DNA from: Naegleria gruberi
Taxonomy: Eukaryota
Assembly (NCBI GenBank): GCA_000004985.1
Contig: GG738926.1
Strand: one strand, 5' to 3'
Length of the DNA stretch: 64,000 nt
The translations under genes were made by a program, and so were the position numbers. The notes beneath the pieces are model-generated. The model saw nothing but the letters and a program-made list of their open reading frames with translations, had not been told where the DNA came from and searched no databases. Shown piece after piece: positions 2,951 to 57,123 of this stretch (the stretch's first letter is position 1; the number at the start of each line of letters is the position of its first letter).

Positions 2951-5900
2951 ATGAGATCTCACAACATCATTGGCTGTTTTTTATTTACCCTGCTATTTAT
3001 TATGATTTTTGGCAGCTGGGTTTCCAATGCCGCTGTATCAATAGATGTAAATTATAATATCTACCAATTAGTTGCCTCTTTCTACAATATCAGATCTATG
3101 GACTTTGACAAGCAAAATAATATCCTGTACATTGTCGGCGCTAATAACAAGGTTGTAAAATATACTGCTGCAAGTGGTACGACTGAATATGATGCATCAG
3201 CATATACTCCTTATGGCATTGCTGTCAATTCTACAAGTGCCTATTTTTCAGTATTTAATCCAGCTTCATTAAAAAAGTGGGACGGAGCTGTAGGAACCTC
3301 ATCTTATCATCTCATTATGCCAGGTTCAGTTTCTACATCAGGTTCAGATGATATAGTAGCAAATTCTTCATTGACGACGAAGCCGAAATATATGAGAATA
3401 TCATCAACCACAGGTGATTTATACTTTACGGAAGCATGCAGAGTGAGAAAAATATCAAATGGTATGGTTCGTGCTGTTGCAGGTAAAACTACTTGTACTT
3501 CCTCATCAGGAGATGGTGGTTCAGCCACAAATGCAGAATTTAATGGAGCTCCATATTATATTGCCTTAACACCAGAAGATGATTTACTTGTCATGGATAA
3601 TGTAAATAGACTGAGAAAAGTTAGCAATGGCACAATTACTACAATTCTATCACCTACCTCTTGTAGAGGTCTTGCTGTCGGTACTAATGGAGATATTTAC
3701 ATAATAGGTAAGTAATTGGATAAGAGCAAATTTCAATAATTATTATGTAGATGATCAAGTAGTTAGTAAGGTGAGGAATGGAGTTTCAACCACTATTGCT
3801 GGTGGTGGTGGAACTTCAACGAGCTCTTTTTCCTCAAATGATCCTCTATCATATGGTTTTGCTTATGCAGAACTCAGTGATATTGTCGTTGGTGTGAATA
3901 ATAGTCTTTATTTTGTTGCTGATCAGAAGTTATTCAAATTAGAACCTTATTGCAGTTCAGGTTATGTACTTTCACCTGATTATACTATTTGCTATCCTGT
4001 CTGCTTTAATACAGTAGCAACATCTCAATCAGTGTGCTCTAATTCAAATGGTACCTGTATTGCTCCTGATACATGTTCTTGCAAAGCTGGTTATACTGGT
4101 TCCAAATGTGAAATTCCAATCTGTTACGGATTACTCTCCAATGACACAGCCAATGCTTGCAGTGGAAGAGGATCTTGTGTAGCAAAGGACACTTGTGTCT
4201 GTCAACCAAATTATTCTGGACTTGCTTGTAATATCACTACCTGTTCTTCAATTTCTAGTACCAGTGCAAATGTTTGCTCTAGAAGAGGGTCATGCACTGC
4301 CTATAATACTTGTACTTGTTCGCAAAATTATTATTATGGAACAGATTGTCAAAATACTTACTGTTATTCAATTTCCTCTACTGATTCAAGTGTTTGTAGT
4401 GGACATGGTAACTGCTTAGATTATAATCAATGTTCTTGTTCTTCAAAATGGTATGGTTCCTATTGTAACATCACAGAATGCTTTTCTATGTTAAGTAACT
4501 CTTCAAATGTTTGTTCAGGTGCTGGTACTTGTAATTTGCCAAATAATTGTACTTGTAATGCTGGATATAATGGAACTAATTGTGAAAACTTTGATTGTTT
4601 CGGAGTGTCTGTGAATAGTGGCCAAAGTGCATGTCAACACAATGGAACATGCTCAGGACCTGGAGCTTGCTCTTGCTTGCCAACATACTATGGAAAAATT
4701 TGTGAAATATCAACTTGTTATGGTATATTGAGCAATTACTCTAGTGTTTGTTCAAGTCATGGAACCTGCACAATGTTGAATACTTGTGAATGCAGCCAAA
4801 ATTATTATGGAAATAATTGCAGCTTCCCTATTTGTTATGGAATAACATATGATGATACTAGTGTATGTTCTGCTCGCGGAAAATGTATTGGCGGAAATAA
4901 TTGTAAATGTAATAATGGTTATACTGGAGCTAATTGCGAGCTCAATATTTGTTATGGTGTTAACTCTGACCAATCTAATGTTTGCTCTTCACGTGGTTCA
5001 TGTGGTGCACCTGATTCATGTCAATGTACTAATGGATACAGAGGTCCAAATTGTCAATATGTTGAAATGATAATGGACGCCAAAGCGGCAGTTTTATCTA
5101 CAGCAGTCTCCAACGTAATAGCTTCCTATGCTCCTAAAACAGCAACATCTTGCAGTTCTATTTTCTCCTCAAAGGATTTGACATATCTTGGCTCCTCGGA
5201 AACTGTCAGATGTATTTGGAATCAAAACACATTCAAAATTTATTTAGGCTACAGACACTTTGTTTATGATAATATGACCATGGATATCTTTGGTAATGGC
5301 ATGAATTTCACTTTGCAAGTAGTCTTGACAAAGGCCATACAAGATAGTGCCAGTGCTTCTATTTCCATATTACCTCAACTATCTAAGGTACCAAAAACAG
5401 CAATTATTGTTAAATCTTACTCACCATTTGTTTTCCAAGCTTTTAGAAATACTTCAATTGCTTGGTCTAACTCAGGTAATACCGATATCTCTACATTGCT
5501 TTCAGGAATGAGCAACAAACCAGTGGTAGTCATTCCTTCTACAGAAATAACCTCAGCTTCAACCAAATTTTCCTTAAATGTAACAGGTAAAAACTGGATT
5601 GGTGCCACTTCAACTAGTGCAAAAGTTGATATTGATTATACTGCAGCCTATCCATACTTTGAATTAGTATCGGAGACAAGTGGTAGTCAATTTACTTGTT
5701 CTGGTTTTGACTGTATTATTGAAGTTAATCCGTATGTTACACCAACTCCTACAGTCTATTTTGATGTACCATTCAATGCTCTCAATAGTGGTTCTGGAGA
5801 TTATGTAATTAGATTTTTGAATAGAGTTGGCTCTACCATTCTAAACAGTTACTATGAGGGTTCAATGAAACTTCAAACAACCTCTAGTGCCTTAACCTAT

Positions 5901-8900
5901 ACAATGTCCTACACTGGCTTTGAAGAAGTGCCAATCGTGTTGCTCAATACTGAAAAACAATACTATGGAAACAAACTCACAATTACTGCTTCTTTTATTG
6001 ACCCGATGGTTGAATATTTGTTGAGTAGTAATAGTATTAGTGTTTCATGGTTTTGTTTTAGAGGTACTTCAAAGACTGGTCCTTTTTCTGCCTATGACTG
6101 TACTTCTCAAACTAAGGAATTAATCATTGGAGAATCTAACCTTATTGAAGGATACCATCAATTCCAATTCACAGCCACTTTGACAAATTCAAAAATCACA
6201 TCCGTTACCAAAACAGCAATTGTGCAAGTTGTTAAAACAAATATTCCAGATATTCTCTTTGACTCTGTTCCTCCAGTTTATCCATCATCAAGAAACTTGG
6301 TATTGAATGCAGTTATTTCTTCTTCCACGCAAATCGGTAGCGTTGTGTGGCAAGTAACCAAGGGTAATTTACTCAATGAGAATATTCTTAGTCAATCAAG
6401 TACTCTCTCATTGGATGGATACAATATCAAATCAACTTTGGTTATTGACAAGTCTTATTTATTACAAGGTGATTCTTATACATTCACTGTTACTGCTTCC
6501 AATGGTATTGGCTCTTCAACTGCAGCTGTTTCAACTGTTATTGATGTAGCTCCAAGAATTGCTTGTCAAGCCTATGACGCAGCCATAACCAATTCCGTTA
6601 TCTATGCTTACTCTAGTGATGTGGTAATTGATTGTGCTTCACTCTCTGACTACTCAATTGCTTCCTATCATGTCGATATATATGCCAACTCAACCAGGGT
6701 AATGACAGTATCTAAAACAATGAAAAAGACTTTTATTACAAAGGTACCATACGGTCCAAATGGAAATATCAGACTGGATGTACGAGCTGTAAACAAGATT
6801 GGATCTATTTCATCTGCTTCTATTGATCTCAAGGTTTCTCTTAAAAATACTGATAACACCCTCGCTGGAAGAATTGGATTTGCTAGTTCTGAATATGAAA
6901 GCAACAAAGCAAGCTTTACAAGATTAGAAAGTGTTGTTACTATGCATTCTTTATTGTTACTTATTATTCAACAAAATTCTGTTAGTGAATTTGCCAGTAT
7001 AGACTCTACAGCCAAAACTACTCTCACCACCTTGATAACCAATATGTTAACTACTTTGAGTGGTCTGAAGAGTATTAGTTACAACGCAGATGACAAATTA
7101 GCTCCTGTTTTTATTCCATTTGCAAATGATGCTTACAGGTTACTTGCTGTTATTTCTCCAACTACAGTGGCTTCCAATGCTGATCTACTCACTTGGGTTA
7201 AATTCTTCATAACGTCATTCAATGATTACAAGACATATTATAGATCTACAGTTGTACCTACTATTTACGACTCTAAACACTTGACAGAAATTGATTCCTT
7301 GATAGGTATTGGCGCAAAGTATATTAGTGATAGTAGTTTCAGTCCATTATATAAGGAAACAGCTATTATTTCCAAATTGATTACTGACGTTACCAATTCC
7401 ACAACAACGACAACCTCCACCATCGTGGATTCCAGTGGTACGGAGACAAGATTTGATATTGTTGACAGAATTCAACAACTGAATGCCAAGACAATTACAT
7501 TCGCTAATTATCCTTCAATTTCTATTTCCTTCCCATCAGATTTCTACTCACAACTCGGTGTTGAAAATTCAGGATCAGGAGTAACCCTCACTTCTGCTGT
7601 TTCAACCTCTAAATATTCCCAACTAGTAAGCCCTTCTGTTGATATTTCTCTTTCTACCTCTTCAGACGCTGTTATTTCTGTGAGTGGATTGCAAGGAAAT
7701 TTGATTCAAATCAATTTTGGCACCTTATCACAACCTAAAGCTAACTTTACCAGTTACAATTATACTTGCAGATTCTTGAATACTACCTCATCACAATGGA
7801 GTCAGTCAGGAGTGTCAAGCTCTATTTCCATTTTGTCAGATGATGGCCAAACTGTCACCTTTTCTCTTTCATGTTTAACTTCTCACTTGACTTCTTTCGG
7901 AGTTGTTTCTGCTATCATCCCTCCAACATCACAATCTAAAACAGTAACAACAGATAATACTGGTGTTGTTGTTGGTGCTGTTTTGGGTACACTCTTGCCA
8001 TTGATTTTGATAGCTGTTATTGTTGTCGTAGTGGTGATAATTGTAATTATTTTATACAAGAGAAAGAAATCTCTCGACTCATCACAAGTTCAAAATGTTG
8101 AATTGGTCAATAAGAATGTTTCAAGTGTTCATATTAGTGACTTCCCTTCAGAAGAAAGCACTCACTTTAAGCAATTGGTTAGTGTATCTTCTGGATCTAC
8201 TAATTCTGATCCACTTGCAAGATATGCTGATATGGTAAAGATTGGACAAGGCGCATTCGGAAGTGTGTTCAAAGGTGTTGATACAAAGCAAGCAGGAAAG
8301 TTGAAGGCCATCAAGGTTATTAGATTTAATTCTGTTGGTGAATTGAACAATATGCTCAAAGAAGGAACTATGCTCATGAACATTGATCACCCACATATTC
8401 TAAAAGTCAACGAGTTTATTATTGACAAAGATAACATTCTCTGTATTGACACAGATTTCTGCGAAGATGGTGATTTGACCAAGCTTACTCTTTCTGCAGA
8501 GCCAATCCCAGAACCAATCATCAAACAAGTAATTTATCAAATGTGTTCTGCTTTGGCCTTTATTCACAACAAGCTCAAGATTATTCACAGAGATGTTAAA
8601 CCACACAACATTTTCTTGAAAGAATTGACAGATTTTTCAGTTCAAACAGTTTTGGCTGACTTTGGTCTTGCTAAACAAGATCAAAACAACAGCATGAATT
8701 CATATGCTGGTACACCACTTTGTAAGTTTTTATTTTTAATTATTTAATTAACAACCAATTAAATAGACATGAGTCCAGAACTTGCCCTTGGAGGTAAATA
8801 TAACTATAATACTGACACTTGGTCTCTTGGTGTTGTAGCCTATCAATTAATGACTAAAGATATCACAACTGCTCTAAGTCATTTGTGCTTAACAGGAGAT

Positions 8901-9125
8901 TCAGAAGATACTAAGAAGAGAATTAGAGCCAAATTGGATGAGACTGGTCAATACTCTGAAGCATTGAAAGAGATTGTCATTTCCATGTTAGAAAAAGATG
9001 CTGCATCACGTCCATTTCCTCAAGAATTAGTCGATCGTCCTTTCTTCCAAGATTATAGACCAAAGAAGAAGAAGAATAACATTTTCAGATCCAGTTCTGC
9101 AGGAGAAGATGATATGTATATGTAA
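2951..9125 (+). CDS. Receptor Ser/Thr protein kinase with an NHL-repeat + tenascin-type EGF-repeat ectodomain (about 2030 aa)
   Basis: Exons are 2951..3707, 3751..8721 and 8767..9125. The introns are 3708..3750 and 8722..8766, both GTAAGT...TAG. It opens with a signal peptide (MRSHNIIGCFLFTLLFIMIFGSWVSNA). NHL-like repeats are recognisable (YIVGANNKVVKY, LLVMDNVNRLRKVSNG). About 9-10 repeats follow of the form C-x11-13-C-S-G-x-G-x-C-x5-C-x-C-x2-(Y/F)-x-G-x2-C. A roughly 900-aa S/T-rich ectodomain leads to a TM helix (AVLGTLLPLILIAVIVVVVVIIVIILY). The kinase domain carries GQGAFGSV, AIKVI, HRDVKPHN, DFG and GTPL-Y-MSPE. The Tyr codon of that last motif is split by intron 2. Confidence 0.8.
3990..5060. 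repeat. Tandem array of about 9-10 tenascin-type EGF repeat units (period about 93-99 nt) inside the receptor kinase ORF
   Basis: The protein shows a reiterated motif ...C(Y/F)G..S...S.VCS.(R/H)G.C.....C.C...Y.G..C. The alternate and reverse frames of this Cys-codon-rich array produce the spurious His/Val-rich ORFs in the track. Confidence 0.75.
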
Positions 9126-9225: not shown

Positions 9226-10650
9226 CTACTCCTCATCAGAGCTAGGCTCATCAGAGAAATACACTTTATCAAATAATTTTAATCCAGCAGGTGTTGAACT
9301 AATCTCTCCAGATATGGAATTCCTTTTAAAATATGTTTCATGATAGGAAGCAATTTTTCTCAATTTAGGAAAAACATCATTAAACAATAAATTCACTTCT
9401 GTTAAATTAGCAACTTCCAAAGTTGTAAAAATCAATTTTTCAATACCGTTAAATTTACCCCTTATATCCCAATCAAAATTATCAATGTTAATAATTTTAA
9501 GTTGATTGGAAAATACAGAATGTGAAATAAGGTTATACGAATCGTCTGAACCACAATTATCAATCATTAAGGTGGTTAGATTAATCATATTTGGACTGTC
9601 AACAATCATTTTTACACCCTCACTCCCAATATCATTGTTACTGATATCCAAATAAGTCAACTTGGTAATATACTTGCTTTCACATAAATATTTACATGCT
9701 TGTTTAGTACACAAGCCATGATAAATGATAAGACTCGATAAATTACTCATATTTGGGCTATTGGCGATGTCAATTATTCCATCTCCAATTCTACACCCTC
9801 CTAAATTCAAATAGGTCAATTGATTTAAATATTTGCTATTAGCAATTTCCTTACATCCTTCTCTCTCAAAACTATTTGAACATAAATTGAGACTAGTGAG
9901 ATTCTTAAAATGTTCATTCCTTGTTATTGGTTCCATATTTTTTATGTAACTTATTTCTAAACATAAGCTTGTCAATTGAGTTAATTGACCAAAATCCAAA
10001 GCTTCATCAACAAAAATATCATTAATTTCCAAATTTGTTAAATTAGTGAAATATTTTCCATAAGCAAGAGCTTTTAAAATTGACTTATTCGCATTGAAAA
10101 GTGATTCCAATTTCAATATCCGTAAATTTTTACAATTTTCACTATTTGCCAAATATTCAATGCCCTCCCTAATTTCTGATTCTCCAAAATCTAAACGTGT
10201 TAAATTTTTCAAATAAGGACTGGTTGCTATTAATTTACAACATTCATCATCAATTTCATTGGCAAACAATATCAGACTCTTCAAATTGCGCATCTCTTCA
10301 CACTGACACAACTCTCTAATACACTCCAATCCAACAAAATCATCGAGACGATAACAATTACTTGCATCCAATTGAGTCAAATTGGAAAGTAATTTGTTTT
10401 TGAACAATAAATTGTTTAATGTACTTCCTCGGGTGAGTTTAATGGAGAGAGGTAGTTTGCAGCACTGATCAAACCATTGTTTGGAAACGAGTGAACAAAT
10501 TGGAATAATTTCCTTCCTATTATGGAGAAATGGTAAAATATTCAGTAGAATATCATCGTATAATGTGGGGGAGGAGTATTCGTGCATTTTCTTACATTTT
10601 GATGGTGGTTGAACACCAGTACCACTTTCAGCACTAAATATTCTTTTCAT
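9226..10650 (-). CDS. F-box-like / leucine-rich-repeat (RNI-type LRR) protein, 474 aa
   Basis: The single-exon ORF starts at a real ATG at 10648-10650. The N-terminus has an F-box-like motif (ILLNILPFLHNRKEIIPICSLVSKQWFDQ). More than 10 RNI-like LRRs follow (L..L.L..C/N.I.D.G...). It lies convergent with the receptor kinase, with about 100 bp between the two stops. Confidence 0.7.
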   Translation of the reverse strand: MKRIFSAESGTGVQPPSKCKKMHEYSSPTLYDDILLNILPFLHNRKEIIPICSLVSKQWFDQCCKLPLSIKLTRGSTLNNLLFKNKLLSNLTQLDASNCYRLDDFVGLECIRELCQCEEMRNLKSLILFANEIDDECCKLIATSPYLKNLTRLDFGESEIREGIEYLANSENCKNLRILKLESLFNANKSILKALAYGKYFTNLTNLEINDIFVDEALDFGQLTQLTSLCLEISYIKNMEPITRNEHFKNLTSLNLCSNSFEREGCKEIANSKYLNQLTYLNLGGCRIGDGIIDIANSPNMSNLSSLIIYHGLCTKQACKYLCESKYITKLTYLDISNNDIGSEGVKMIVDSPNMINLTTLMIDNCGSDDSYNLISHSVFSNQLKIINIDNFDWDIRGKFNGIEKLIFTTLEVANLTEVNLLFNDVFPKLRKIASYHETYFKRNSISGEISSTPAGLKLFDKVYFSDEPSSDEE

Positions 10651-18903: not shown

Positions 18904-20585
18904 TTGAAAATGCTCAATACAACACTTCATAAACAGAAAAAGAAGGTGAGCAAGAAATCTCAACCTAAAATTCACCAAATTACCATCTCTAAATATATCA
19001 ATGATAAATATGCTCTAAAATCTGTTGAATTGGGAACTGGTTCCTTTGGGGATGTTTATTTGGGAGAGGAAACAGATCCGATCACTAGAAAGAAGAGAGA
19101 TGTGGCTATTAAGAGAGTGAGATTGGAAAGATATGGTCCTGAACATTTCAAATATTTGGTGGCAGAAATTGAAATTATGGCTGGTTGTCAAAATGAGTTT
19201 GTCATGTCACTTGTTGATAAAATTGAAATTCCAAGAAAGGAACTCTATTTGGTAATGGACTTGTGTGAGGCAAATTTTAAATATTACATGAATAATGCAC
19301 GAAAGAGGAGGCAAGATAAGAGATTGCCTTTACTTTCAGAGAAGGAAATTCAATATTGGATAAAACAAATTAGTAGTGGATTGGGATATTTACATTTGGA
19401 AAAGAAGATTTGCCATCGTGATATTAAACCACATAATTTGCTACTCAAGAAAAAGGGTCACGAAGTTGCTTTTGATTTCTATGCCAAGATTGGAAATTAT
19501 GATGAATATACCATTCTGATTAGTGACTTTGGTCTTTCCAAAGTGTTGGATAGCAATCCAATTGCAGAGACAATTCTTGGAACTCAATGTTATAGATCTC
19601 CACAGCTGGCACTCTTCCAACCATACTCATTCGATGCAGATATATTTGCTTTGGGTGTGGTGCTGTTTGAAATGATTGCTGGTTACTGCTTGTTTGGTGC
19701 TCAAGTTACTAATCCAAAGCCAAAATATGGTGAAATTATTAGTACTTTAACAGAGAATATTGACTGGAGCTTTTTATCTGATGCACTTGATATTTCTCCA
19801 GAGCTGGTAGATCTTCTCTCTGGCATGTTACAATTTGAAGTGGAGAAACGTTTGAATATTGAACAAATTTTGCAACATCCCTTCCTTAATATGGATTTTT
19901 CAGAAAGTGAAGTTACTACTACCAGGTCATTCCATCTGAAACTATACCAACTGTATCATATATTGAAATTCCTCTTACTACCACTACTACAACTGACAAT
20001 GATTCTCCAAACAACTCAACTCAACAACAGCAACAAGTTCCTGTACAAATTATACTACCAACCAGCGAGGAAGAAAAAGAAAAAGAATTGCCAGTTAACG
20101 AACCAATCCAAGTAATACAGTTGGAACGTGATGAGCCAACTCCTACAACCTTTTCAGAATTTGTCTCCTTCTCCTATGAAAGAGTTGGACTGCCCCAAGA
20201 TTATACACGAGTAAGCATTATCAAGGATGAGATTGGTTGTGAACCTGCCCTTGTTAAAACTGAAAAAATTTCCAAGAGCAAACACTCCAAAGTTCTCATT
20301 CTTCTCAGCAGTGACAGCAACAAGGCAATTAATTATTCAATCAAGGTACTAGAGTCGCCAGTCAAACACACACAAACAGGAACAGTTTCTTCTACTGTGG
20401 AATATGAATTGGAGAATATTGAAATGGAAATGATTACTCTAGAGTTTGAATTTACTCATTCTCTCACCAACAGATGGCTTTCTTATTTCACAACTCCAGA
20501 ACAGATTCCATTCACTATTGAAATTTATGTTCAATCGAGAATTCCAGAACATACCTCAACTCTTTCTATTGAATCAATCAATTAA
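18904..20585 (+). CDS. Cytoplasmic Ser/Thr protein kinase with a T/S/Q-rich C-terminal tail; the reading frame switches near 19911-20066
   Basis: The kinase domain is in the frame of ORF 18904..20115 (GTGSFGDVYLG, AIKRV, HRDIKPHNLL, DFGLSK, SPQLA). After ..SESEVTTT that frame degenerates into low-complexity junk. A second frame stays open from 19911 to 20585 with a plausible tail (..IPSETIPTVSYIEIPLTTTTTT..QQQQQ..EEEKEKELPVNEPIQ..) and has no ATG of its own. I read it as one gene with either an unusual intron or an indel. Confidence 0.55.
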
Positions 20586-22887: not shown

Positions 22888-25800
22888 ATGAAACTATTAA
22901 ACTTGTTTATTTTTCTAATATTATTTCCCACACTAATTTATTCATCATCCGCAGAGGATACGAGAAATTATTCCAGCTCATCCATTAATAATTCGAATAA
23001 TTTTCCTTCATCCTCTTTGAAAACTAATGTTGTTAACTATTCGAAAGGAATTAATTTACAAATAATTTATTACATTAATTCTGATGATGTCAAATATCAG
23101 AATACAACTTGTCAAGACGAAAGTCATCCATGTTCAGATATGAACCAAGTGATCTTGGCAGCAAATACGAAACTATTCGAAATATTTCATGAAAATGATC
23201 AAACTAAATTAGATTCTTTTACAATGATTGTCATGATTGATTCGAAATTGGAATGTAACAAACTGCTCTTTGATTTTTCAAATTATACGAAACGATTCGA
23301 AATGAGGTGGAAAGGATACGAAAATGGTTTATTCTCTGCTTGTCTAAATAGTTTAGATGAAAATTCCATTTTAGATGCTTTCACTGTTGAGAATGGAAAG
23401 ATTTCAGGCGAATTGAATAATAGATTAGGTATCAAGAATTTGGAAATTCGAAACTGTCACGATGGTGGAATGATTTACTTTTATACTAAAATAGAAAATT
23501 TGCTGATTGCTGACAGTTTCTTTCATGAAGATACTGAAATAACTGAGATTACAAATGTACGAGTGGAAAATACGCAATTGGATGATTTTGAAATTGTTTC
23601 GAATGGAGCAAGTGTTGAAATTTCAAATTCTAAAATTCAAGGAATTGTTGATTTGCAGAATTTTAAATCATTTTCTATTCGAAACTCAATTTGGAAAAAT
23701 AACCGAGTTCATGAGGATTATTCATCAACATTTAATTTAGGACAAGATGTTTCATTTGATAATGTAACAACTAATGCTAAAATTGTGTTTATTTCAATCA
23801 AGTCAATCAAGATGAATGGGCTAATTGTACACAATTATGGAAACGGATATTTCTTGTATCAAATGATACGAGTTTCTCATTTCTATCTAAGCAACAGTTC
23901 GTTTGTGGGAAATTTCGTGCTCAACAACTATTTACTCTCCTTGCAAATAGTTGAATCTATACAAATTGAAAATTGTACAGTTTCTAATAATGTTGGAGGT
24001 TTCATCATGGTAACAGATGCTACTTTGATAATGGGACAGGTGAATATACGAATTAGTAAGAGTGTATTTCAATCCAACGAGATGCTGTCAGATATTGCTC
24101 TAATTGACATTGTGGATCAAACAAGAGAGATGTATTTTATCACAGTTGACCATTGTAAATTTTTGGAAAATACAGGAGAATCCACTTTACACATTGATGG
24201 AGGACTTGCCCAAATTTCCAATTCAGACTTCTACTTTAATATTGCAAACGAACATGGTACTGCATACTTGAATTGCTATGTTACAATTTCAAACTCTAAA
24301 TTCATCGCTAATCAAGCCAAGTTAGGAGGAGCCATTTACATTGGTCCTGCTGGAAATATTGATGCATCTCAAACAATTGATTTTACTTGTGATAATAATT
24401 GGGCAACCTACGCTGGAGGATGCATTTATTCAGAAAATTTGGATTTTTCAAAATTGAAACGCATGAATGGAACTAATATTGCTAAATATTATGGAAATGA
24501 TGTGGCCACACCTATTGTGAGTCTGGATGCTACATTTGATGAGGTAGATTCTAATGGAAATATTGAGGTTTACCCAGGTCAAGCATTCCAAATTAATTTT
24601 TTCCCAAGAGACAAGTTCAATCAGAGCACCTCTTATTTATTGAATCAATATTTGTTTATCAATTCAGAAAAAGGTCATTTTACAATCTCTCAGAATTTTT
24701 TAGATGGAATCCATTCTATTCCAGTAGTTTTGCAAATATTTCCAATTGACGACTACAACCCATCATTGCCACCACTTGTAATATTGATTTCTTCAAAAAT
24801 TGAAATCAAAATTCCTGTAAATATTCTCCCATGTCCAGATAGTTCTTTCCTGAAATTATCTCAAAATGGACATTACTGTGAACAAATTCCATTAGCAGCG
24901 ATTCTGTCATCTGTAATTTTGGGAATTATTTTGATAACCATTATATTGGCAGCATTAATAGTGATAGCTAGGAAATTATTGAAATTGAGAAAACAGGAAC
25001 GTGCTGAAAAGAAAATGGAGCTATTGTTCAAAGATAAGGAATTTATATTCGAAACAGAACAAGCACCTCTATTACTTTCTAATACCATCAACAGTAGTGA
25101 TTCAGGTGAAAGTAGATCAATAATTGGAAACAGGCAACAATACATCATTCCAATTTCTGAAATTAATATTTTGAAAAGAATAGGAGAAGGTGGAATGGGT
25201 GTCGTATATCACGCGAAGTGGAATCGAACTGATGTTGCCATCAAACAATTGAAAACAGATTCCAATGATGAAGAATTCGAAAATGAAGCAATTTTAATGA
25301 GCTCACTTCGACATCCATGTATTGTGAGCTGTTTTGGAGTTTCTCTGACAACCAATGGAAAATATATGATTGTAGAATATTTGGAAAATGGAAGTCTAGA
25401 AAAGGCAATTTATAATTCAAAGATGGGAAGAGCAATTTTGAGATTTGAAACCAAGTTGAAAATATTAACTGATGTTGCCAAAGGATTAGTTTATTTACAT
25501 TCAATCAAACCTCATAGAATTATTCATAGGTATGTTTACTACTTTTATTGGAATAGATATTAATTATGGAATAGAGATTTGAAACCAGGAAATTTATTAC
25601 TCGATAAGAATATGAATGCAAAAGTTGGGGATTTTGGATTGAGCAAAATTGTTTCGAATAATTCTGCAACAATGACAGCAAATGTAGGAACTTTACTTTA
25701 CATGGTAAGTCTAGATAATTTCACAAATTGAATTAAATTGTTATCAATTTAGGCGCCAGTAAGTAATTTCGAAATTTAATTTATTAAAATTTCGAATATT

Positions 25801-26248: not shown

Positions 26249-26944
26249 TTATTTCTTATTATTATTAATGTCACTAAATTCATAGATTCCATTTCCATAT
26301 TGTGCCATTTCTTGCATGTTAGGTGCAGAACCTGACCCAATTCCAGTAAAATGGAATGCATCTCTAATAGATTTAAAGGCATCAACAGAGCTGATATCCT
26401 GAATATGACCATCACACATAATCAAAATATTTTCAATCTTTGGAAATTTCCTAAAAGTTTGGTTTAGGGCTTGTTTAAGCAAAGTATTACCCAATAATGG
26501 AACTGACCACACATTAAGAAATTGGTTTAGAGCATCCAAATCAGTAGGTTCAATTGTGTCTCCGTGTTTAAACCACTCAGTTGTAGATCCCCATAAGGCA
26601 ATGGAAATTTTTAGATCTCCAGTATTAAACGCCTTGGATTGAACAAAATTATTAAAACAATCAATTAAAGTTTTGAAAGGAGATCCTTTCATTGATACGG
26701 AAGCATCACCCAGAATAACAATCTGGCCCTCTTCAATGATAGATGATCCAGCAAGTTTTGAATTCTTACTGGTTGTCTTGAGAGAGGTATTGATTTTCAA
26801 AGCATCTGCTCTAGTGGTCACTTGAGCTGGTTCAATAATCTTTGAATTCACCTCGATACCAAAAGAAGGTATTTTCCTTTGGAACATTGTGCTTTGAGCG
26901 TTTAATATTGGTTCTGGCATCAGGTTATTATGATTATGATCCAT
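26249..26944 (-). CDS. von Willebrand factor type A (vWA) domain protein, 231 aa
   Basis: Real ATG at 26942-26944. A MIDAS-like motif is present (IVILGDASVSM, i.e. DxSxS) with the downstream hydrophobic beta-strand pattern of a vWA fold. The stop lies 31 bp from the stop of the convergent receptor kinase. Confidence 0.6.
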   Translation of the reverse strand: MDHNHNNLMPEPILNAQSTMFQRKIPSFGIEVNSKIIEPAQVTTRADALKINTSLKTTSKNSKLAGSSIIEEGQIVILGDASVSMKGSPFKTLIDCFNNFVQSKAFNTGDLKISIALWGSTTEWFKHGDTIEPTDLDALNQFLNVWSVPLLGNTLLKQALNQTFRKFPKIENILIMCDGHIQDISSVDAFKSIRDAFHFTGIGSGSAPNMQEMAQYGNGIYEFSDINNNKK

Positions 26945-27011
26945 GGACCTACTACTTACTTTTCAGCATCTTTGTTCTTCTTGTCAATGTCTTCTACGTT
27001 GTTCTTGACAG

Positions 27012-27296
27012 CTACAGTTGCAAAGACATCATCAAGTTGGAGATCTTTGAGCTGTTAGAACCCTCTCCACTTTTAAACTTTTCCTGCATAGCTTTAATGC
27101 TACCTCTTCTTTTTGACAATTCAGTTACTTCCTCTCTTTCCTTGGTAATTGGACTGCTTGAAGTAGAAGCAATCAAAGGAACTTGAAGTAATGATGGCCT
27201 GACTGGAGTCCTCAAATACTTTTGATCAGTTTCATTGCTTGGCTTTTTCTCAAATTGTTGGGAAAGATTTTTAACACTGTTTGTTGTTGGTATCAT
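27012..27296 (-). CDS. Small S/T/K/E-rich ORF (94 aa); could be a separate small gene or an upstream exon of the vWA gene
   Basis: The ORF has a real ATG and a non-random, protein-like composition. I could not find a splice linking it in-frame to 26944. Confidence 0.25.
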   Translation of the reverse strand: MIPTTNSVKNLSQQFEKKPSNETDQKYLRTPVRPSLLQVPLIASTSSSPITKEREEVTELSKRRGSIKAMQEKFKSGEGSNSSKISNLMMSLQL

Positions 27297-28160
27297 GTTA
27301 GAGTTGATTTTTTTTGATCATTATTTTCCATGACAGCAAGTCAAATGAAAGAATTTCAAATAATTATTGTAAACTGATTTTTTAGCAAATTTGCACCAAC
27401 CTACCCTGTTTGATGGAAAAGAGCAACCAATCCCCAAACAGAAATAAATCAAACATGTCTATGCTGACCTTATTTCATAATTTTCTGGAAACTAAAGGCA
27501 AGAAATAGTACTCTAGTACCGATAATAATTCTTTACAATCTTTTACTACAGTTTTCATGTCAAATCACCTGATAAATTTATCAACCATGTTCCATTCCGA
27601 CCAAATTGTAATCCAACATCTCAGTTCTTGAGTGAGTAAAGGAGTTGTTCGCGAAAATTAAATTGATGATGGAAAGCAAGAAAGGATGCTAAATATTCTA
27701 TTATACTATTACGAATATTCTTGTTGTTATTGGCTGATAATTTATTATTAATCTCCATTGAATATTATTCTTGATGATGAATTTAAAATCCAAGGAAGGC
27801 TTCCGAACAACATGTTTTTTCTTGATTGTTGCGCTTTCATTTTCCGTTACAAATTTGCAAATAAAAAATATTTCAAAATTAAAATCACTGATGATGAAGC
27901 CATCAATTATTTCAAATAATACTTGTATCTATTCCGTACAGTAATGATGATGAAACTGGCCAAAACTCTAGAAAGCCAGGAAGATCGGATTTTTTACTGT
28001 TAGCATTCTTCCGAACCTTCCTTTCTCTAAGCCTTCCTTTTTTCAACACCATCACAAAGCCTTGTTATAATAATTTAATAATTTGCAACGTTTATTCATC
28101 ATCAAATTCCTTACTTTCAAAGCCATGAATCTTCATTCAGGCAACAAACCTTCCTCCTTT

Positions 28161-28308
28161 ATCACAACAATTAATCATCAATTCTACAACATATGATCTT
28201 ATATTCAATTGTTCATAGATGAAATAATTGCCCTTCATCACAAAAATTAATCATATCAATTCTACAACTTGTGATCTTATATTAAATTGTTCATAGATGA
28301 AATAATTG
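28161..28308. repeat. Tandem direct repeat, 2 copies of about 70-72 bp (period 76), about 450-600 bp upstream of the pyruvate carboxylase ATG
   Basis: Copy 1 is 28161..28230 (atcacaacaattaatcatcaattctacaacatatgatcttatattcaattgttcatagatgaaataattg). Copy 2 is 28237..28308, about 90% identical, with a 2-nt insertion and a few substitutions. Confidence 0.8.
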
Positions 28309-28769
28309 ATCAGCCTCGGCAAATTAGATTAGTCCCCACCTTCACAATGGCATAAACAATCTCATCATTAGCAACCAACTTTCTATTATGTTGCAAAAGG
28401 GCCTGAAAAAGATCTTGAAAATTCGCGAAAGATTTTCGCTTATTTTTACAATGAACACTCGATTCGGATTTTTGAGGAGAATAACAAGCAAGAAATTGAG
28501 CGAGTACAGAGATAAGCTATTTTGTAAACTCGAGTTGTCTGTATTGGTTGGCGACTTTTAGGATTAATTTGGCCAGTAGGAAGTGTTCACCTACTCTCTC
28601 TCTTTCCACAACTGCAGTTGTTGTTGTGAAAACATTTCACAAACAAAAAAACACAACGAAAACACACTTGTCAATTTGTTGCTGTTGATCAAAGAATTTC
28701 AAATTTTGTAAAATAGGTAAGCTAATTTGAAAAGAGCTTCTTGAGATTTATAATTTGATCAAACTATTT

Positions 28770-31700
28770 ATGAAACCAAACACCAATGTGGATCATTATC
28801 AAAAAAAGGACCACATCAAGTCAATCACAACAAGAATGAAGAAAGTTTGTTTATCCAAGTCAACTTCATCCTCTACCTCTGCCAAACTCAATTTTGCTAT
28901 TCAAAAGCATAAGAAGAATGGTAATTCATCTTCAATCTTTAACAGATCTACTCCAATTTCCTTCTCCAACACTGACTATATTCAACAATTATATCGTCAA
29001 TATGGAACCACAAGAATCTCCTTGAAGGAATTTGAAAAGTTGCTTGTGGCCAACAGAGGTGAAATTGCCACGAGAATTTTACGTTCTGCCCACGAAATTG
29101 GTTGCAGAACTGTTTCGATTTATGCAAAACAAGATGCTTCCTCTGTGCATCGTTACAAAGCAGATGGTAAGTTGTTTTATTTGAATATGTTATTATAATA
29201 ATTGATCGTATTTTGTAATAATATTTGATGAAATAATTGTAAAAATTCCGATCAATAGAAAGTTACTTGATCGGAAAGGACAAGGAATTAGGTCCAGTTG
29301 AAGCTTACTTGAGCATTGATGAGATTATTAAAATTGCCAAGGAGAATGGAGTTGATGCCATTCACCCTGGTTATGGATTTCTTTCAGAGAGAGCTGATTT
29401 TGCACGTGCTTGTTCTGAAAATGGTATTCAATTCATTGGTCCAGTAAGTATTTCATGTGATTGCAATAATATATTTAACAAATTGTTGGTAGACTGCTGA
29501 TGTTGTTGAATCTTTTGGTGACAAGACAAGAGCTAGAAAGGTTGCTACTGATATTGGAATTCCTGTTGTTCCTGGAACTCCAACTGTAAGTATTCTATAC
29601 TTCTTTAATCCTTAATCGATTGTAAATTATTCAAATAACTTATGTTCATTCCTATTTATAATGAACTTGTCCAATTGACCAAAATATTAAGGCAGTAACA
29701 AGTATTGCAGAAGCCAAAACCTTCTGCTCCCAAATTTCCTTCCCAGTCATTTTGAAAGCTGCCATGGGAGGTGGTGGAAGAGGTATGAGAGTTGTTTCCA
29801 AAATGGAAGATTTAGAAGAAGCATTCCAAAGAGCTTCCTCTGAAGCTTTGAATGCTTTTGGTTCTTCAGCAATTTTCATTGAAAAGTTTGTTGAAAAGCC
29901 ACGTCACATTGAGGTTCAAATCTTGGCCGATAAGTTTGGAAATGTTGTTCACTTGTACGAAAGAGATTGTTCAGTGCAAAGAAGACATCAAAAAGTTGTT
30001 GAAATTGCTCCAGCTCCACATTTGAATCCTCAAGTGAGAGAAAAGATTTTGGCTGATGCTGTTCGTCTTGCTCGCCACGTCAAGTATCAAAATGCAGGAA
30101 CATTTGAGTTTTTAGTCGATTCTAATGGAAAGGATTATTACTTTATTGAAGTCAATCCACGTCTTCAAGTCGAACACACTGTTACTGAAGAAATTACAGG
30201 TGTTGACATTGTCCGTTCTCAAATCTTAATTGCCGAAGGAAAGAGTTTGGACGAAATTGGTTTAAAACAAGAAAGCATTTCAGTCAGAGGTTCTGCCATT
30301 CAATGTAGAGTTACCACTGAAGATCCATTGAATGGATTCCAACCAGATACTGGTGTATTGGAAGCTTTCAGAACTGGTGAAGGTATGGGTATTCGTTTGG
30401 ATATTGGTTCTGGTTATGTTGGATCAAAGGTTTGTTTTTTTAACACTTTACAAAATATTTAATTCTTCTCGTTCTTTCACATCAATAGATTACACCATTC
30501 TATGATTCGCTCCTTGTCAAGGTCATTGGTAAAGGTCTCACTCATGAAGAAGCTTCCAACAAATTGAGACGTGCCTTGGCTGAATTCAGAATTCGTGGTG
30601 TCAAACACAATATTCCATTCTTGCAAAAGGTCTTATCTCATGAAAAGTTCTTAAATGGTTATGTTGACACCTCATTCATTGATACTAACCCAGAACTCTT
30701 CCAATTCTCATCCAGTGGTAACAGAGCTCAAAAGCTCTTATCATTCTTGGCTGAAAATGTTGTCAATGGACCAACTACATTACTCGTCACTGATTTGGAA
30801 CCATCCAAGAAGAATCCAACTGTTCCAAAGACACCTACTGGTGCTCCTCCACGTGGCTGGAAACAAGTTCTCGATGAACAAGGTCCTGAAGCATTTGCAA
30901 AGGCCATTCGTGATAGAAGTGAATTGCTCATTACTGACACAACCATGAGAGATGCTCACCAAAGTTTATTGGCAACTCGTGTCAGAACCAGAGATTTAAT
31001 GTCTATTGCTCCATATACTGCTCACGCCATGTCAGATTGTCTTTCATTGGAAATGGGAGGTGGTGCAACCTTTGATGTTTGTTTGAACTTTTTGAGAGAA
31101 TGTCCATTCGAAAGATTGGCTAAGTTGAGAGAAGCCATTCCTAACATTCCATTCCAAATGTTATTCAGAGGTGCAAATGCTGTTGGTTACACTGCTTATC
31201 CAGATAATGTTGTTTACAAATATTGTAAGAAAACAGTTGAACATGGTATGGACATTTTCAGAATCTTTGACTCATTGAACTATGTTCCAAATATGGAGTT
31301 GGGTATTGATGCTGTTGGTAGCGCTGGTGGCGTTATTGAAGCAGCCATTAGTTATACAGGAGATGTCAGTGATCCTAAAAAGTCCAAGTATAATTTGGAA
31401 TATTATTTGAAAGTTGCCAGATCACTTGTTGAAAAGGGAGTTCACATTTTGTGTATCAAAGACATGGCTGGTTTGTTGAGACCTAGTGCAGCAACCTTAT
31501 TGATTGGTGCTTTGAGAAAGGAATTCCCACACATTCCAATTCATCTTCACACTCACGATACTGCAGGAACTGGTGTTGCTACTTTATTGGCAGCTGCTGA
31601 AGCTGGTGCTGATATTGTTGACGCTGCTATTGATAGCATGTCAGGATTGACTAGTCAACCTAGTTTGGGAGCTATTGTTGCTTCATTGAAGAACACTCCA

Positions 31701-32845
31701 TTGGATACTAAATTGGATTTGGGTAAACTCTCCAAAGTTTCTGATTATTGGGAACAAGCCAGAGGATTGTATGCTCCATTCGAATGTACTACTACTTTGC
31801 GTTCTGGTTCTAGTGATGTTTATGTCCATGAAATTCCAGGAGGTCAATATACCAATTTGAATGCTCAAGTTTATTCCATCAATGGTTCACTTGGTAAGTT
31901 TAATTTTTTTACTTTCTAATAGCTAATTATTGTTTTTTTAAATATGAATATAATTTCAGATGGATTCCCTAAGGTTAAGGAATCATATGAAATTGCCAAT
32001 AGATTATTGGGAGATATCATCAAGGTCACACCAAGTAGTAAGGTTGTCGGTGATTTGGCTCAATTCATGGTTCAAAACAACTTGGCTGAAAAGGATGTTA
32101 TTGAAAAGGCCGATCAATTGTCATTCCCTAACTCTGTTCTCGAATATTTTGAAGTAAATTGGGTATTCCATATGGTGGTTTCCCAGAACCTTTGAGAACC
32201 AAGGTTATGAGAGGAAAACCATCCATTGAAGGAAGACCAGGTGCTAGCATGCCAGATTTTGACTTTGTCAAGTTGAAGGACAAGTTGAAGAAGGATTTGG
32301 ATTATGATGCCTCTGAAGAAGATTTGATTTCTTCATCTCTCTTCCCAAAGGTATTTGAGGAATATGTTCAATTCAAACAACAATATGGTGAGGTCACTAA
32401 TTTGGGAACTCGTCAATACTTTAAGGGAATTAAAGTTGGTGAAGAAACTGAAGTTGAATTAGAAAAGGGTAAAGTCTTACATATCAAATTGAAGGCCATT
32501 GGAGAAGTTGGAAGTGATGGTAAGAGAGAAGTTTTCTTTGAAGTAAATGGTCAATCACGTCTTGTTTTGGTTCAAGATAAGAAACTCTCCAAGACTATTC
32601 AAATCAGATCAAAGGCCAATAAGAAGGATCCAAATGAAATTGGAGCACCAATGCCAGGTAAAGTTATTGACATTAAAGTCAAGGAAGGTGATAAGGTCAA
32701 GAAGGGAGATACTTTATTGGTCCAAAGTGCCATGAAGATGGAAACTCAAGTCAAGTGTAACTTTGATGGTATTATCAAATCACTTGGTGTTAAGGTTGGT
32801 GATGAAGTTCAAGGTGGAGATTTGTTATGTATTGTTTCTCAATAA
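28770..32845 (+). CDS. Pyruvate carboxylase (biotin carboxylase + carboxyltransferase + biotinyl domains), 7 coding segments
   Basis: Exons are 28770..29166, 29259..29443, 29493..29585, 29692..30429, 30489..31893 and 31960..about 32153, then a frame-shifted continuation of about 32155..32845. The introns all start GTAAGT, or GTTTGT at 30430. It opens with an N-terminal mitochondrial-type presequence. The motifs are [89 protein letters not shown] and AMKMET (biotin attachment). There is a 1-nt frame discontinuity at 32151..32161 (see findings). Confidence 0.85.
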
Positions 32846-32862
32846 ATTATTATTATCTTTCG

Positions 32863-34275
32863 TTAAAATTGGCTTGACTGGAGCAAATTTGTCTTACATC
32901 GACTTGATATTTCAGAATACATTTCAGAATACCAACTTTCTGGCAGGGCACCTTGGAGAGCCATTTTGTTCATCAGTTCGGTATCATCCAAATATTTCAA
33001 ATTTCCCAATCCAAATAATTGTTCTTTTCGTTGATTGAATTCTTGTTGTGAGAAACGCCACATGAAACCCTTCTCCCTGGCCAAGTTTACAAAGAAATAA
33101 TCGTCAATGAGTGAGGGATGGACATATCTCAGAACTGCAATGTTTTCCTGAACTAATTCTTTGACTAGCTCTAGATTAGTTTGAAGCTCTTCGGAGGCGT
33201 ATTCAATTGAGCGAGGTTGATTTTTGACAGCCTCTGTGAGGATTTCAAAGTTATTGATAATTTTTGGATAGGATTTTAGATATTTCAAAATCAAGCCATT
33301 AATGGAGGCAAATCTTAATATGAGATCAGGAGATCTCTTAACTTTTCTATGAACAAATTCGAATAATCTGATATCCTTTCGAATAACATATTCTATAATA
33401 TCCAAATCCCTTTTAATGAATCCAGGAGCAACTCTGAAAGCTTGAGGATTGACCATTATCAACCTACGCATAAATCTTCCACTATTTCTGAGTTTCTTTG
33501 AAATACTTGGCACTAAACCAGGAGACAACACACAAGCCATGTGTATAATTTCTCTATCTTCTGAAAATTCAGATAAAATAATTTCCAAAAATGTTTTACA
33601 CGACCCAATCAATTGTGTGTAATTTTCCATGATTTTCAGAATGAGATCTCTATTATCCTCAATGAAAAATTCAACAGGTATATATGAAATAGCCTTTGGA
33701 TATTGTCTCAATAGTTCCATTACAATATCTGGATCGAAGGAGAAAGGTTTCGGCAGTGAGAAATAATTAATGGCATCATGGCAGACCAATTGTAAAGCAT
33801 CCAATCTCTTAATGGACTTGTTTTTGAGAGGTTTCACTGTAATGGGACGATCCATAAATATCTTTTCAAGGTTAATTTCATCAGTGATAATTTGAAATTG
33901 TTGAATGGCAGGTGAATTTCTAAACAATTTACTGACAGCTCGCTGGATTTCAGGACTGAGTGCATAATTATATGTAAAATAGTCATGAGTAGTGAAAAAC
34001 TTGGCCAGGAATGTAAAACTCTTCGAATACTCAATTGGAATGTAATCATAATCTCTCGACATGTCCTTCCAAAATTTTCTGGGAAGAGAAAACTTCTCTC
34101 GGAGCCAACTAAATTGTTCCGAATACTTTTCCTGACAAAAATCTATAAGTATAACAACTGTAGAATAATCAGTGTTATTCCCAACCGATGCCGATGAAGA
34201 ATATTTGGTAAATTTGGTCGACGGTTGGAATTCGTTTTTTTCGAGTTGATTTTCTGCTGTTCGCTTTTTGTGCAT
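32863..34275 (-). CDS. Repeat protein with DUF4116-like repeats (about 470 aa)
   Basis: The real ATG is at 34273-34275 (the track ORF starts at an upstream TTG). The recurrent motif ..A(V/I)(K/S)..P..I.Y(A/I)S.EL(Q/R)..(L/R)E(L/I)V..(L/A)V.. (e.g. AVKNQPRSIEYASEELQTNLELVKELVQENIAVLRYVHPSL) resembles DUF4116 repeats. This assignment is from memory of that family. Confidence 0.55.
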   Translation of the reverse strand: MHKKRTAENQLEKNEFQPSTKFTKYSSSASVGNNTDYSTVVILIDFCQEKYSEQFSWLREKFSLPRKFWKDMSRDYDYIPIEYSKSFTFLAKFFTTHDYFTYNYALSPEIQRAVSKLFRNSPAIQQFQIITDEINLEKIFMDRPITVKPLKNKSIKRLDALQLVCHDAINYFSLPKPFSFDPDIVMELLRQYPKAISYIPVEFFIEDNRDLILKIMENYTQLIGSCKTFLEIILSEFSEDREIIHMACVLSPGLVPSISKKLRNSGRFMRRLIMVNPQAFRVAPGFIKRDLDIIEYVIRKDIRLFEFVHRKVKRSPDLILRFASINGLILKYLKSYPKIINNFEILTEAVKNQPRSIEYASEELQTNLELVKELVQENIAVLRYVHPSLIDDYFFVNLAREKGFMWRFSQQEFNQRKEQLFGLGNLKYLDDTELMNKMALQGALPESWYSEMYSEISSRCKTNLLQSSQF

Positions 34276-34444
34276 TTTTTTGGTTTTTTTTGGAATTTTG
34301 TTTTGTTTGAAGGTTTGCAGAAAATTTTGCAAAACTCAAATTGTCAATAATCAAATGAATTAATGAAGAAATAATTGATTTTAAAATCATGGAGTTGTAG
34401 ATATTTGTGTAACTTAAAGATTGAATGCAAAAAATCTTGGTGGT

Positions 34445-36569: not shown

Positions 36570-36631
36570 ACAAGTGAATTTTCTTGTGCAAAACTCTGGT
36601 AATAAAATCTTTGGATGGCTCGCCACGTTTA

Positions 36632-36702
36632 CCGTCTCGGGAGGAATCGAACCTCCGTCAATGGATTCAAAGTCCACTATGCTACCATTACACCACGAGA
36701 CG
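36632..36702 (-). tRNA. tRNA-Gln (anticodon TTG)
   Basis: The reverse complement is CGTCTCG-TG-GTGTAATGGTAGCAT-AGTGGA-CT-TTG-AA-TCCAT-TGAC-GGAGGTTCGATTCCTCC-CGAGACG-G. The 7-bp acceptor stem pairs perfectly, the T-arm GGTTCGATTCC is canonical, and the sequence is close to metazoan tRNA-Gln-TTG. It sits about 60 bp downstream of the preceding gene. Confidence 0.85.
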
Positions 36703-37403
36703 AGCACATTAATTTGAGAACCTTAATGGATATTGAGGAATCAAAACAAAGTTTTCGTTGAATTCAACAACACACACATTGATGAGGGATTGACAGCTTT
36801 ATCGGATATGATGTGGATGGAATGTTGGTTGTACTTTTCCGGTAGAAGGAATTAATTATTCTTGAAGGATATTGTTAATACGGTGGTTGTCGCTTCTTGT
36901 TGAACGTAACTGGAGTGTTTAAATAATGTTGTTTTTCAAAAGATGAATCACACTCATCCACTAATTATTGTTTTGTTACCATCATCATTAAAATTCATCT
37001 CGATGCATTAACGATATTTTTTAAAATATTAAAAAAATCTTCACAATACGTCCACATATTTATTATTAATATCATCTTTGTTGTATCATCATGTAACAGA
37101 TCTACAGAAAAATTAAGGAAGAGGGATTAGAATTTTGAGAGATTCGCTATGGGTCAATCATCATGAACAGAATCTTTTGGCTCATTCGGATTTCCAACAT
37201 CAAGCATCATAGCTTTGCCTCAATAACAATGAAGAAAAGAGAGTACAAAAAAAGAAGTTTAAAGGTCCTTATGCCGCCTAATACCTCCGACTAACTAGGA
37301 AAATTAGAAAATACTAGATTAACTCTTCAAGCAACCTGGAACAATCAATCAAACAACCTAACAAAAAAAAAGATAATCACAGTTGACCTGCTCATCATCT
37401 AGA

Positions 37404-57050: not shown

Positions 57051-57123
57051 CGCCCACCGTGGGGGTCGAACCCACGACCACAAGGTTAAGAGCCTTGCGC
57101 TCTACCGACTGAGCTAGACGGGC
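57051..57123 (-). tRNA. tRNA-Lys (anticodon CTT)
   Basis: The reverse complement is GCCCGTC-TA-GCTCAGTCGGTAGAGC-G-CAAGG-CTCTTAA-CCTTG-TGGTC-GTGGGTTCGACCCCCAC-GGTGGGC-G, 73 nt with a canonical cloverleaf. Plus-strand A-runs upstream act as its T-run terminator. Confidence 0.85.

Follow-up and report, generated by a model that had tools for sequence, protein, structure and literature searches.

A putative adhesion-type receptor Ser/Thr kinase of Naegleria gruberi with a GAIN/GPS module predicted next to its single transmembrane helix

The stretch of Naegleria gruberi DNA analysed here (64,000 nucleotides of contig GG738926.1, assembly GCA_000004985.1, hereafter the window) carries at 2951-9125, on the + strand, one three-exon gene whose product of 2028 amino acids (aa) is best explained as a type I receptor Ser/Thr kinase of the adhesion-receptor type, which would cleave itself at a GPS motif into two fragments that remain associated; we place the probability of this overall reading at about 60%. 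The architecture is highly secure: a six-bladed NHL propeller, nine EGF units, about six PKD/FnIII-like sandwiches forming a rigid stalk, a GAIN domain with its GPS, one transmembrane (TM) helix and an RD kinase. The receptor kinase family to which the protein belongs is well supported, and its most interesting feature is the coupling of a GAIN domain to a single-pass kinase, hidden in what an earlier annotation made from the sequence alone (the original prediction) had described as a "spacer". The gene and its product are laid out as follows.

2951..3707, + strand: exon 1, aa 1-252 and base 1 of codon 253; no in-frame ATG separates the start codon at 2951 from the preceding stop, and the donor GTAAGT lies at 3708
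2951-3031, + strand: signal peptide, aa 1-27, a hydrophobic N-terminus ending SNA|AV
3032..3953, + strand: degenerate NHL beta-propeller, aa 28-320, about six blades, spanning intron 1, from PDB matches and colinear relatives
3708..3750, + strand: intron 1, 43 nt, GTAAGT...TAG, joining the two frames (a stop at 3715 if left unspliced)
3751..8721, + strand: exon 2, aa 253-1910, a single open frame of 4971 nt with the last NHL blades, EGF array, REJ-like module, GAIN, TM helix and kinase N-lobe
4002..5054, + strand: EGF array, aa 337-687, nine tandem six-Cys units of the teneurin/tenascin type
5064..6860, + strand: string of about six PKD/FnIII-like beta-sandwiches, aa 691-1289, from AlphaFold2; the last three are REJ-like (aa 1011-1276, nt 6024-6821)
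6861..7913, + strand: predicted GAIN domain, aa 1290-1640, with helical subdomain A (aa 1290-1466) and beta-sandwich subdomain B (aa 1473-1640)
7767..7904, + strand: GPS motif, aa 1592-1637, with predicted scission between L1632 (nt 7887-7889) and T1633 (nt 7890-7892)
7965..8057, + strand: TM helix, aa 1658-1688, the sole Kyte-Doolittle hydrophobic peak besides the signal peptide, with KRKK next on the cytoplasmic side
8223..9047, + strand: Ser/Thr kinase domain, aa 1744-2003, spanning intron 2; Pfam Pkinase 1.1e-49, 169.7 bits, model positions 1-263 of 263
8722..8766, + strand: intron 2, 45 nt, GTAAGT...TAG, whose splicing restores GTPLY|MSPE
8767..9125, + strand: exon 3, aa 1910-2028 and the stop, with the kinase C-lobe and tail

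The string SCLTSHLTSFGV, located just before the TM helix, resembled a GPS motif, and the presence of a GPS/GAIN was therefore tested. An alignment of 18 sequences (A1: the query segment, a paralog encoded in the same window and 16 database proteins) has a mean column identity of only about 26%, and within it C1592, W1602, C1627, H1631, L1632 and F1635 are invariant in 18/18, G1606 is nearly so and the +1 position is always T or S. Such invariance of H-L-T/S and of the F at +3 at this level of divergence suggests selection for GPS autoproteolysis. When the A1 profile was compared with all PDB sequences, the top matches were the GAIN domains of adhesion GPCRs, ADGRG1 (1.1e-4), ADGRF1, ADGRG3 and ADGRL3, each aligned on C..W..C..HLT.F. 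The Pfam GPS model matches 16 of the 18 A1 sequences scanned singly (best 2.3e-7); on the relatives' aligned segment, P0113 reaches 28.1 bits, above the 22.5-bit cut-off, and P0104, P0107 and P0109, the last of which also carries a strong REJ domain, fall slightly under it. A search of the protein collection with the A1 alignment returned zero matches, the candidates having probably been swamped by low-complexity S/T-rich sequences.

The structural evidence agrees. AlphaFold2 applied to A1 gave a mean predicted local distance difference test score (pLDDT) of 86.4 and a predicted template modelling score (pTM) of 0.76. In this model aa 1290-1466 are all helical (about seven long and three short helices, pLDDT mostly >85) and aa 1473-1640 fold into a 12-stranded beta-sandwich with two short helices, H-L-T occupying the turn that connects the two final strands. 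As defined, a GAIN domain has two parts, a helical subdomain A (six helices in both CL1 and BAI3) and a subdomain B with 13 strands plus 2 small helices; its last five strands are the GPS, which has four cysteines in two disulphides (C801-C832 and C820-C834 in latrophilin), a conserved Trp and cleavage at L|T/S/C, and whose H-L-T/S and F at +3 define the cleavage site (PMC3321182). The predicted subdomain B agrees in fold with the solved domains (a twisted beta-sandwich with the GPS as its last strands), and 25 residues separate T1633 from V1658, which places the motif directly before the first TM helix. Judged by position relative to the His, the GPS of the kinase family keeps C1 (C1592) and C3 (C1627, at H-4) and is without C2 and C4. 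On these positions one whole disulphide appears to be gone with the C1-C3 pair kept, that is, a coherent loss and not decay.

The remainder of the region between the EGF array and the membrane is also folded, according to prediction. Its composition is unusual: aa 691-1657 are 24-31% Ser+Thr with few cysteines, and a full-length Pfam scan left the whole stretch from the EGF array to the TM helix without a match at E<=1. The original prediction regarded about 900 residues here as a glycosylation-rich spacer with no obvious homology, which might hide new domains. Its suggestion that a structure prediction be run proved sound, and the outcome speaks against the description itself: the AlphaFold2 model of aa 686-1300 consists of folded domains (pLDDT 81.7), so that together with the GAIN model the region is predicted to be folded throughout, and the ~970 residues contain only 9 N-glycosylation sequons. 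A REJ profile built solely from Pfam-REJ-positive proteins (seed P0004, REJ 4e-53), to which the kinase family contributed zero sequences, matches aa 1014-1276 of the query with 49.6 bits (E 1.4e-15 in a 117-sequence set), and one further iteration picks up three Naegleria kinases, P0005, P0003 and P0099. Pfam REJ (PF02010) itself gives no direct match to the query, and a fold comparison of aa 686-1300 with the PDB returned generic PKD/FnIII-like matches among which polycystin-1 is not named. The similarity of aa 1011-1276 to the profile makes this segment REJ-like, short of a proven REJ domain. Hidden domains thus exist, as had been suspected, and they belong to known kinds instead of new ones: a GAIN with its GPS, and PKD/FnIII sandwiches of REJ-like character, all too divergent for the Pfam thresholds. 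Family profiles used together with structure prediction can therefore make sense of an S/T-rich region that has no Pfam match.

On the other side of the membrane, the kinase domain has all its motifs intact: GQGAFG at 1751, AIK at 1772-1774 (K1774), HRDVKPHN at 1865-1872 (D1867), DFG at 1889 and SPE at 1912. An Arg before the catalytic Asp of HRD is what defines an RD kinase, and the Lys of HRDxK goes with Ser/Thr specificity; the same HRDVKPHN had been read as non-RD, which is incorrect. The best solved relatives (best 60) are ULK3 (4e-31), STK24/25 (MST3/STK24), NEK1/2/7, STK10, SLK, ULK1, CDPK and CDK2, and none of those 60 is a TKL or TK receptor kinase (plant RLK/Pelle-IRAK, TGF-beta receptor or tyrosine kinase). 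With ULK3, MST3/STK24, NEK2 and NEK1 as its nearest solved neighbours, the protein indeed belongs to no textbook receptor-kinase family, as originally stated. By its motifs the kinase appears to be catalytically complete, of the RD type and close to the ULK, STE20 and NEK kinases. The juxtamembrane segment (aa 1700-1745, window ~8090-8230) is S-rich and contains SDFPS(E/D).S..FK.L followed, just before the kinase, by (N/D)P(L/F)(S/A)RY. Both motifs are common to the query, the paralog in the window and most Naegleria relatives, and they may constitute a docking or regulatory element.

The N-terminal half is where the protein resembles teneurins. The EGF array is matched above cut-offs by EGF_Teneurin (5e-31, 106.8 bits), EGF_2 (7e-30, 103.6 bits) and EGF_TEN (2e-27, 97.1 bits), and the 54 Cys of aa 337-687 fall into nine regular groups of six, so that the tenascin-type array of 9-10 units that had been announced contains exactly 9. 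The propeller is harder to recognise. No Pfam model matches the NHL region at E<=1 in the full-length scan of the query (PF01436 and PF25021 are absent), so that, of the hidden Markov model searches recommended with the original prediction, those for EGF and Pkinase succeeded and that for NHL did not; the NHL claim is supported by PDB comparison and by relatives. With phmmer, the region matches several NHL repeats of bacterial teneurin-like proteins (9pt5 and 9ifo, E 1e-11) and teneurin-3 (E 0.02). It also aligns colinearly (34% identity) with the N-terminal part of N. gruberi P0003, which itself matches the NHL propellers of teneurin-like proteins, SOQ1, TRIM71, NHLRC2, PknD and teneurin with E values from 1e-38 to ~1e-6. 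The Naegleria relatives have very strong PF01436/PF25021 matches (up to 383 bits on PF01436), and the six blades of the query were counted by eye. A signal peptide, together with a C-terminal TM helix followed by KRKK, implies type I topology with a cytoplasmic kinase, and the order foreseen for the protein (signal peptide, NHL, EGF, long module, one TM helix, Ser/Thr kinase) is correct. The description of the outside as teneurin-like holds for the EGF/NHL half, by the Pfam EGF_Teneurin/EGF_TEN and PDB NHL matches, and fails for the membrane-proximal half, which resembles polycystin-1/suREJ and adhesion GPCRs.

The gene itself is real and has three exons. Three open frames of 254, 1658 and 118 codons lie on the + strand of 2951-9125, and the two GTAAGT...TAG introns join them into a coding sequence of 6087 nt with zero internal stops or frameshifts. 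Junction 1 restores an NHL blade (GDIYII|DDQVVSKVRNGVSTTIAGG), and the BLAST high-scoring segment pair with N. gruberi P0003 runs colinear through it; junction 2 rebuilds GTPLY|MSPE of kinase subdomain VIII, and the paralog in the window has an intron (44412-44457) identical to intron 2 in position and phase. The three-exon model that had been proposed is thereby confirmed; the uninterrupted product is also as expected, with a spliced length of 2028 aa in place of 2030. A gene fusion or misassembly is ruled out because the reading frame is continuous from the EGF array through the kinase N-lobe, in the single 4971-nt exon. The window as a whole is AT-rich (~34% GC), with short spliceosomal introns and tRNA genes, which marks it as nuclear DNA of a eukaryote.

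We propose that the GAIN domain would cleave itself at L1632|T1633 during maturation, the N-terminal fragment (NHL, EGF, REJ-like module and most of GAIN) staying non-covalently bound to a stub composed of the last beta-strand, a 16-residue linker, the TM helix and the kinase. The NHL/EGF end is likely the one that binds a ligand or a surface, and binding or a mechanical pull at this distal end could strain, deform or shed the N-terminal fragment; the clustering of the stubs would then change and the kinase domains would trans-phosphorylate their activation loops (DFG...SMNSYAGTPLYMSPE). These steps do not deserve equal trust. Autoproteolysis at L1632|T1633, as predicted from the motif, has slightly better than even odds, and a coupling of kinase activation to force or shedding is offered tentatively, at odds clearly below even. 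The same caution applies to the idea that the cleaved GAIN is a mechanical or ligand-triggered fuse controlling a single-pass kinase, which would make this the first GAIN-gated receptor kinase: it is possible, and we would bet against it sooner than for it.

Several observations weigh against self-cleavage and its consequences. The Pfam GPS model, although the top match of the query segment (aa 1591-1637), scores only 16.3 bits (E 0.015), under the 22.5-bit cut-off; the scissile turn lacks one of the two GPS disulphides by which it is partly held; the HL|T consensus is necessary and not sufficient, BAI3 being uncleaved in its crystal structure (PMC3321182); and, because the protein has one TM helix and no 7TM (seven-transmembrane) pocket, adhesion-GPCR signalling through a tethered agonist cannot operate here in its known form. 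The main rival builds on part of this evidence: in the same architecture the GAIN would remain uncleaved, as a rigid membrane-proximal stalk, and a ligand at the NHL/EGF end would drive dimerisation and trans-phosphorylation. The missing canonical disulphide and the existence of true GAIN domains that stay uncleaved, such as BAI3 (PMC3321182), are compatible with it, and an RD kinase with a phosphorylatable activation loop suits activation by dimerisation. We nevertheless consider it unlikely, if the least unlikely of the alternatives: H, L, the T/S at +1 and the F at +3 are invariant in 18/18 sequences, and a mere structural turn would hardly be expected to keep the positions of the catalytic triad.

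Two further alternatives are far less probable than an uncleaved stalk. If the protein mainly served adhesion or matrix binding, its kinase might be an inactive scaffold (a pseudokinase), or the locus might be a decaying paralog; multi-copy families such as this one, with a paralog in the same window, often hold degenerate members, and the query NHL is indeed degenerate relative to that of the Naegleria relatives. This is very unlikely given a 6087-nt coding sequence free of internal stops and frameshifts and a kinase with intact Gly-loop, VAIK Lys, HRD, DFG and SPE that matches Pkinase over its full length. Least probable of all, to the point of being nearly dismissible, is the notion that aa ~600-1500 form a long, largely unstructured and glycosylation-rich Ser/Thr spacer, perhaps with wholly new domains. 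The Ser+Thr content, the lack of a Pfam match at E<=1 from the EGF array to the TM helix and the recovery of only 20 matches among 1.84 billion representative proteins all have this appearance, but the folded models (pLDDT 81.7 and 86.4), the 49.6-bit REJ profile match, the recognition of GAIN by both profile and fold and the scarcity of sequons led us to reject a mucin-like region.

The protein has relatives in Naegleria. The 20 matches just mentioned were obtained with HMMER from aa 691-1656 at E<=1e-3, and the four below 1e-30 are all long kinases; the last ~170 residues of this region alone match more proteins than the whole region does. The query protein itself is absent from a collection of 15 billion proteins, where the best match has 46% identity over 18% of its length. 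The full-length relatives are all from Naegleria: N. fowleri KAF0980309.1/CAG4715597.1 (P0099, P0116), N. gruberi XP_002676784.1/D2VGC0 (P0003, P0119) and three more from this species (P0002, P0005, P0007) and, more distantly, proteins of N. lovaniensis. Named in the databases as 'predicted protein' or with an automatic kinase label, none is characterised. Their identity to the query is low, 27-31% across the spacer with HMMER and 31-33% over longer spans with BLASTP. They are nonetheless colinear with it over the EGF array, the ~970-aa module, the GPS, the TM helix, the juxtamembrane motif and the kinase, and differ in having more NHL blades, far better conserved than those of the query. All show C...W...G...C...HL[ST].F just before the membrane and a single TM helix after the GPS. 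The architecture is thus that of a small family of N. gruberi, N. fowleri and N. lovaniensis, already in the databases and not unique, in which the query may be, judging from these identities, a deep paralog.

The paralog in the window lies ~30 kb downstream (~37404-44750, + strand), is 35% identical to the query protein and shares with it the GTPLY|MSPE intron position.

37377-38384, + strand: paralog signal peptide MRTIFVICIAVVAWFILLFLTSEIHC and NHL exons
38441-44233, + strand: paralog large exon, with more EGF units, REJ-like module, GPS SCLTNHLTTFAV, TM helix and kinase N-lobe
~44274-44411 and ~44458-44748, + strand: paralog small kinase exons, with an extra intron after IHR|D

Other relatives carry the EGF/REJ/GPS ectodomain on multi-pass membrane regions with RGS, RhoGAP or PH domains. 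Kinase, RGS, RhoGAP and PH outputs thus all occur with the same ectodomain, which acts like a sensor cassette that can be reused. From N. fowleri, 7TM-RGS proteins that have both EGF repeats and GPS motifs have been published (Bosch et al. 2022, PMC9283941), and RGS-bearing proteins are found among the homologues of the query (P0011, P0016, P0051).

A group of shorter Naegleria spp. proteins (P0100, P0102-P0107, P0112, P0113) has NHL, one to few EGF units and a GAIN beta-sandwich without the helical subdomain A, with a conserved HLTSF(A/S)VID.NYKK followed by a TM helix and a short tail. In latrophilin, subdomain A is reportedly required for cleavage, so these proteins make an interesting contrast.

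Several well-known systems share parts of this architecture. Adhesion GPCRs (latrophilin/ADGRL, CD97/ADGRE5, GPR56/ADGRG1 and BAI3) resemble the query in having both subdomains A and B, a GPS that supplies the final strands and places HL|T in the last turn, a short linker before the first TM helix and an adhesion-type N-terminus with EGF repeats. In the query, however, one TM helix and a kinase replace the 7TM G-protein coupler (a single hydrophobic segment follows the GPS, then the kinase), of the two GPS cysteine pairs only C1-C3 is present, there is no HormR domain and the source is a protist of the Discoba type and not a holozoan. Polycystin-1 and the sea-urchin REJ proteins likewise place PKD/FnIII-like sandwiches, with a REJ-like segment, immediately ahead of GAIN/GPS and membrane, and in suREJ1 EGF modules occur together with a REJ module and a single TM helix. 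The query differs from them in lacking a C-type lectin or LRR and in its kinase output; it has no PLAT or PKD_channel Pfam match and, with its single TM helix, no 11-TM region. Teneurins and bacterial teneurin-like proteins, whose EGF units and NHL propeller are the best Pfam/PDB matches of the N-terminal half, have type II topology, their EGF units lying close to the membrane, and carry a YD-shell, an FN-plug and a Tox-GHH C-terminus but neither kinase nor GAIN. The query, a type I protein, reverses the order of NHL and EGF with respect to the membrane and has no Pfam match to the YD/RHS models. In PknD of M. tuberculosis, a Hanks-type Ser/Thr kinase is likewise joined by one TM helix to an NHL propeller sensor, and the NHL region of the Naegleria relatives matches this sensor (1rwi) with E 1e-17; PknD is bacterial, has its kinase N-terminal and its propeller directly after the TM helix, is devoid of EGF, REJ and GAIN and is therefore analogous, not orthologous. 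The query falls in none of these four groups, because it has neither the 7TM nor the PLAT/11-TM, type II/YD-shell or bacterial-topology features that mark them. Closest in lineage and in type of ectodomain (EGF and GPS) are the N. fowleri 7TM-RGS proteins, which are multi-pass with an RGS instead of one TM helix with a kinase and whose GPS keeps the canonical C.C.HLT double cysteine (PMC9283941).

In the literature we found no description of a protein kinase bearing a GAIN/GPS. A cross-kingdom survey of transmembrane kinases names none of Naegleria, NHL, EGF, GPS, REJ or GAIN (PMC10463195), and a review of GAIN evolution, which places the domain before Holozoa, treats it solely in the context of 7TM or PKD proteins (PMC12716839).

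To our knowledge, GAIN domains have been studied almost only in animal adhesion GPCRs, where they are autoproteolytic and present an agonist, and in polycystin-1, both relevant to disease. A GAIN whose cleavage residues are conserved, set directly above a single TM helix and an active-looking kinase, is a natural test of what the domain does without a 7TM pocket, be it shedding, force sensing or clustering. If the GAIN is indeed a cleaved fuse that controls the kinase, GAIN/GPS in deep-branching Discoba would be a general-purpose switch for kinase, RGS or RhoGAP outputs, and GAIN signalling would predate, and be independent of, the 7TM tethered agonism of animal adhesion GPCRs. Independently of this condition, the known range of the REJ-GAIN cassette now includes heterolobosean amoebae, where it has seemingly been recombined with kinase, RGS and RhoGAP outputs, which bears on how early eukaryotes assembled complex surface receptors. 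The presence of family members in N. fowleri, the brain-eating amoeba, makes these large surface kinases candidates for sensing contact with prey or host.

The rest of the window holds two more kinases and a few unrelated genes. A third receptor-like kinase (22888-25563, +) has a signal peptide, an ectodomain of ~640 aa without Pfam match, by eye repeat-rich and possibly a beta-helix, and a TM helix at aa 666-690; its kinase N-lobe, best matched by PK_Tyr_Ser-Thr, is cut by an intron after IIHR. A soluble-looking kinase open reading frame (18904-20115, +; 403 aa, Pkinase 1e-49) is 28% identical to the query kinase domain (tblastn). A leucine-rich-repeat (RNI-like) frame at 9226-10650 (-) converges on the 3' end of the query gene, and the frames at 60026-61672 (-) and 32863-34332 (-) encode an F-box-like domain and DUF4116 repeats, respectively. 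The pyruvate carboxylase gene at ~26870-32350 (+; locus L001) is split by short introns; a fragment of it is 100% identical to an ENA protein, its best named matches being animal proteins at about 63%, and the region has 97.7% DNA identity over 4.1 kb to an ENA metagenome contig (ERZ929261, run ERR1078381, PRJEB11402, k127_29330), so that the sample must contain a near relative of the source. Five tRNA genes, at 36631-36703 (-), 49918-49990 (+), 50976-51048 (+), 57051-57123 (-) and 59869-59941 (-), comprise three tRNA-Lys(CTT), one tRNA-Gln(TTG) and one tRNA-Ile(AAT).

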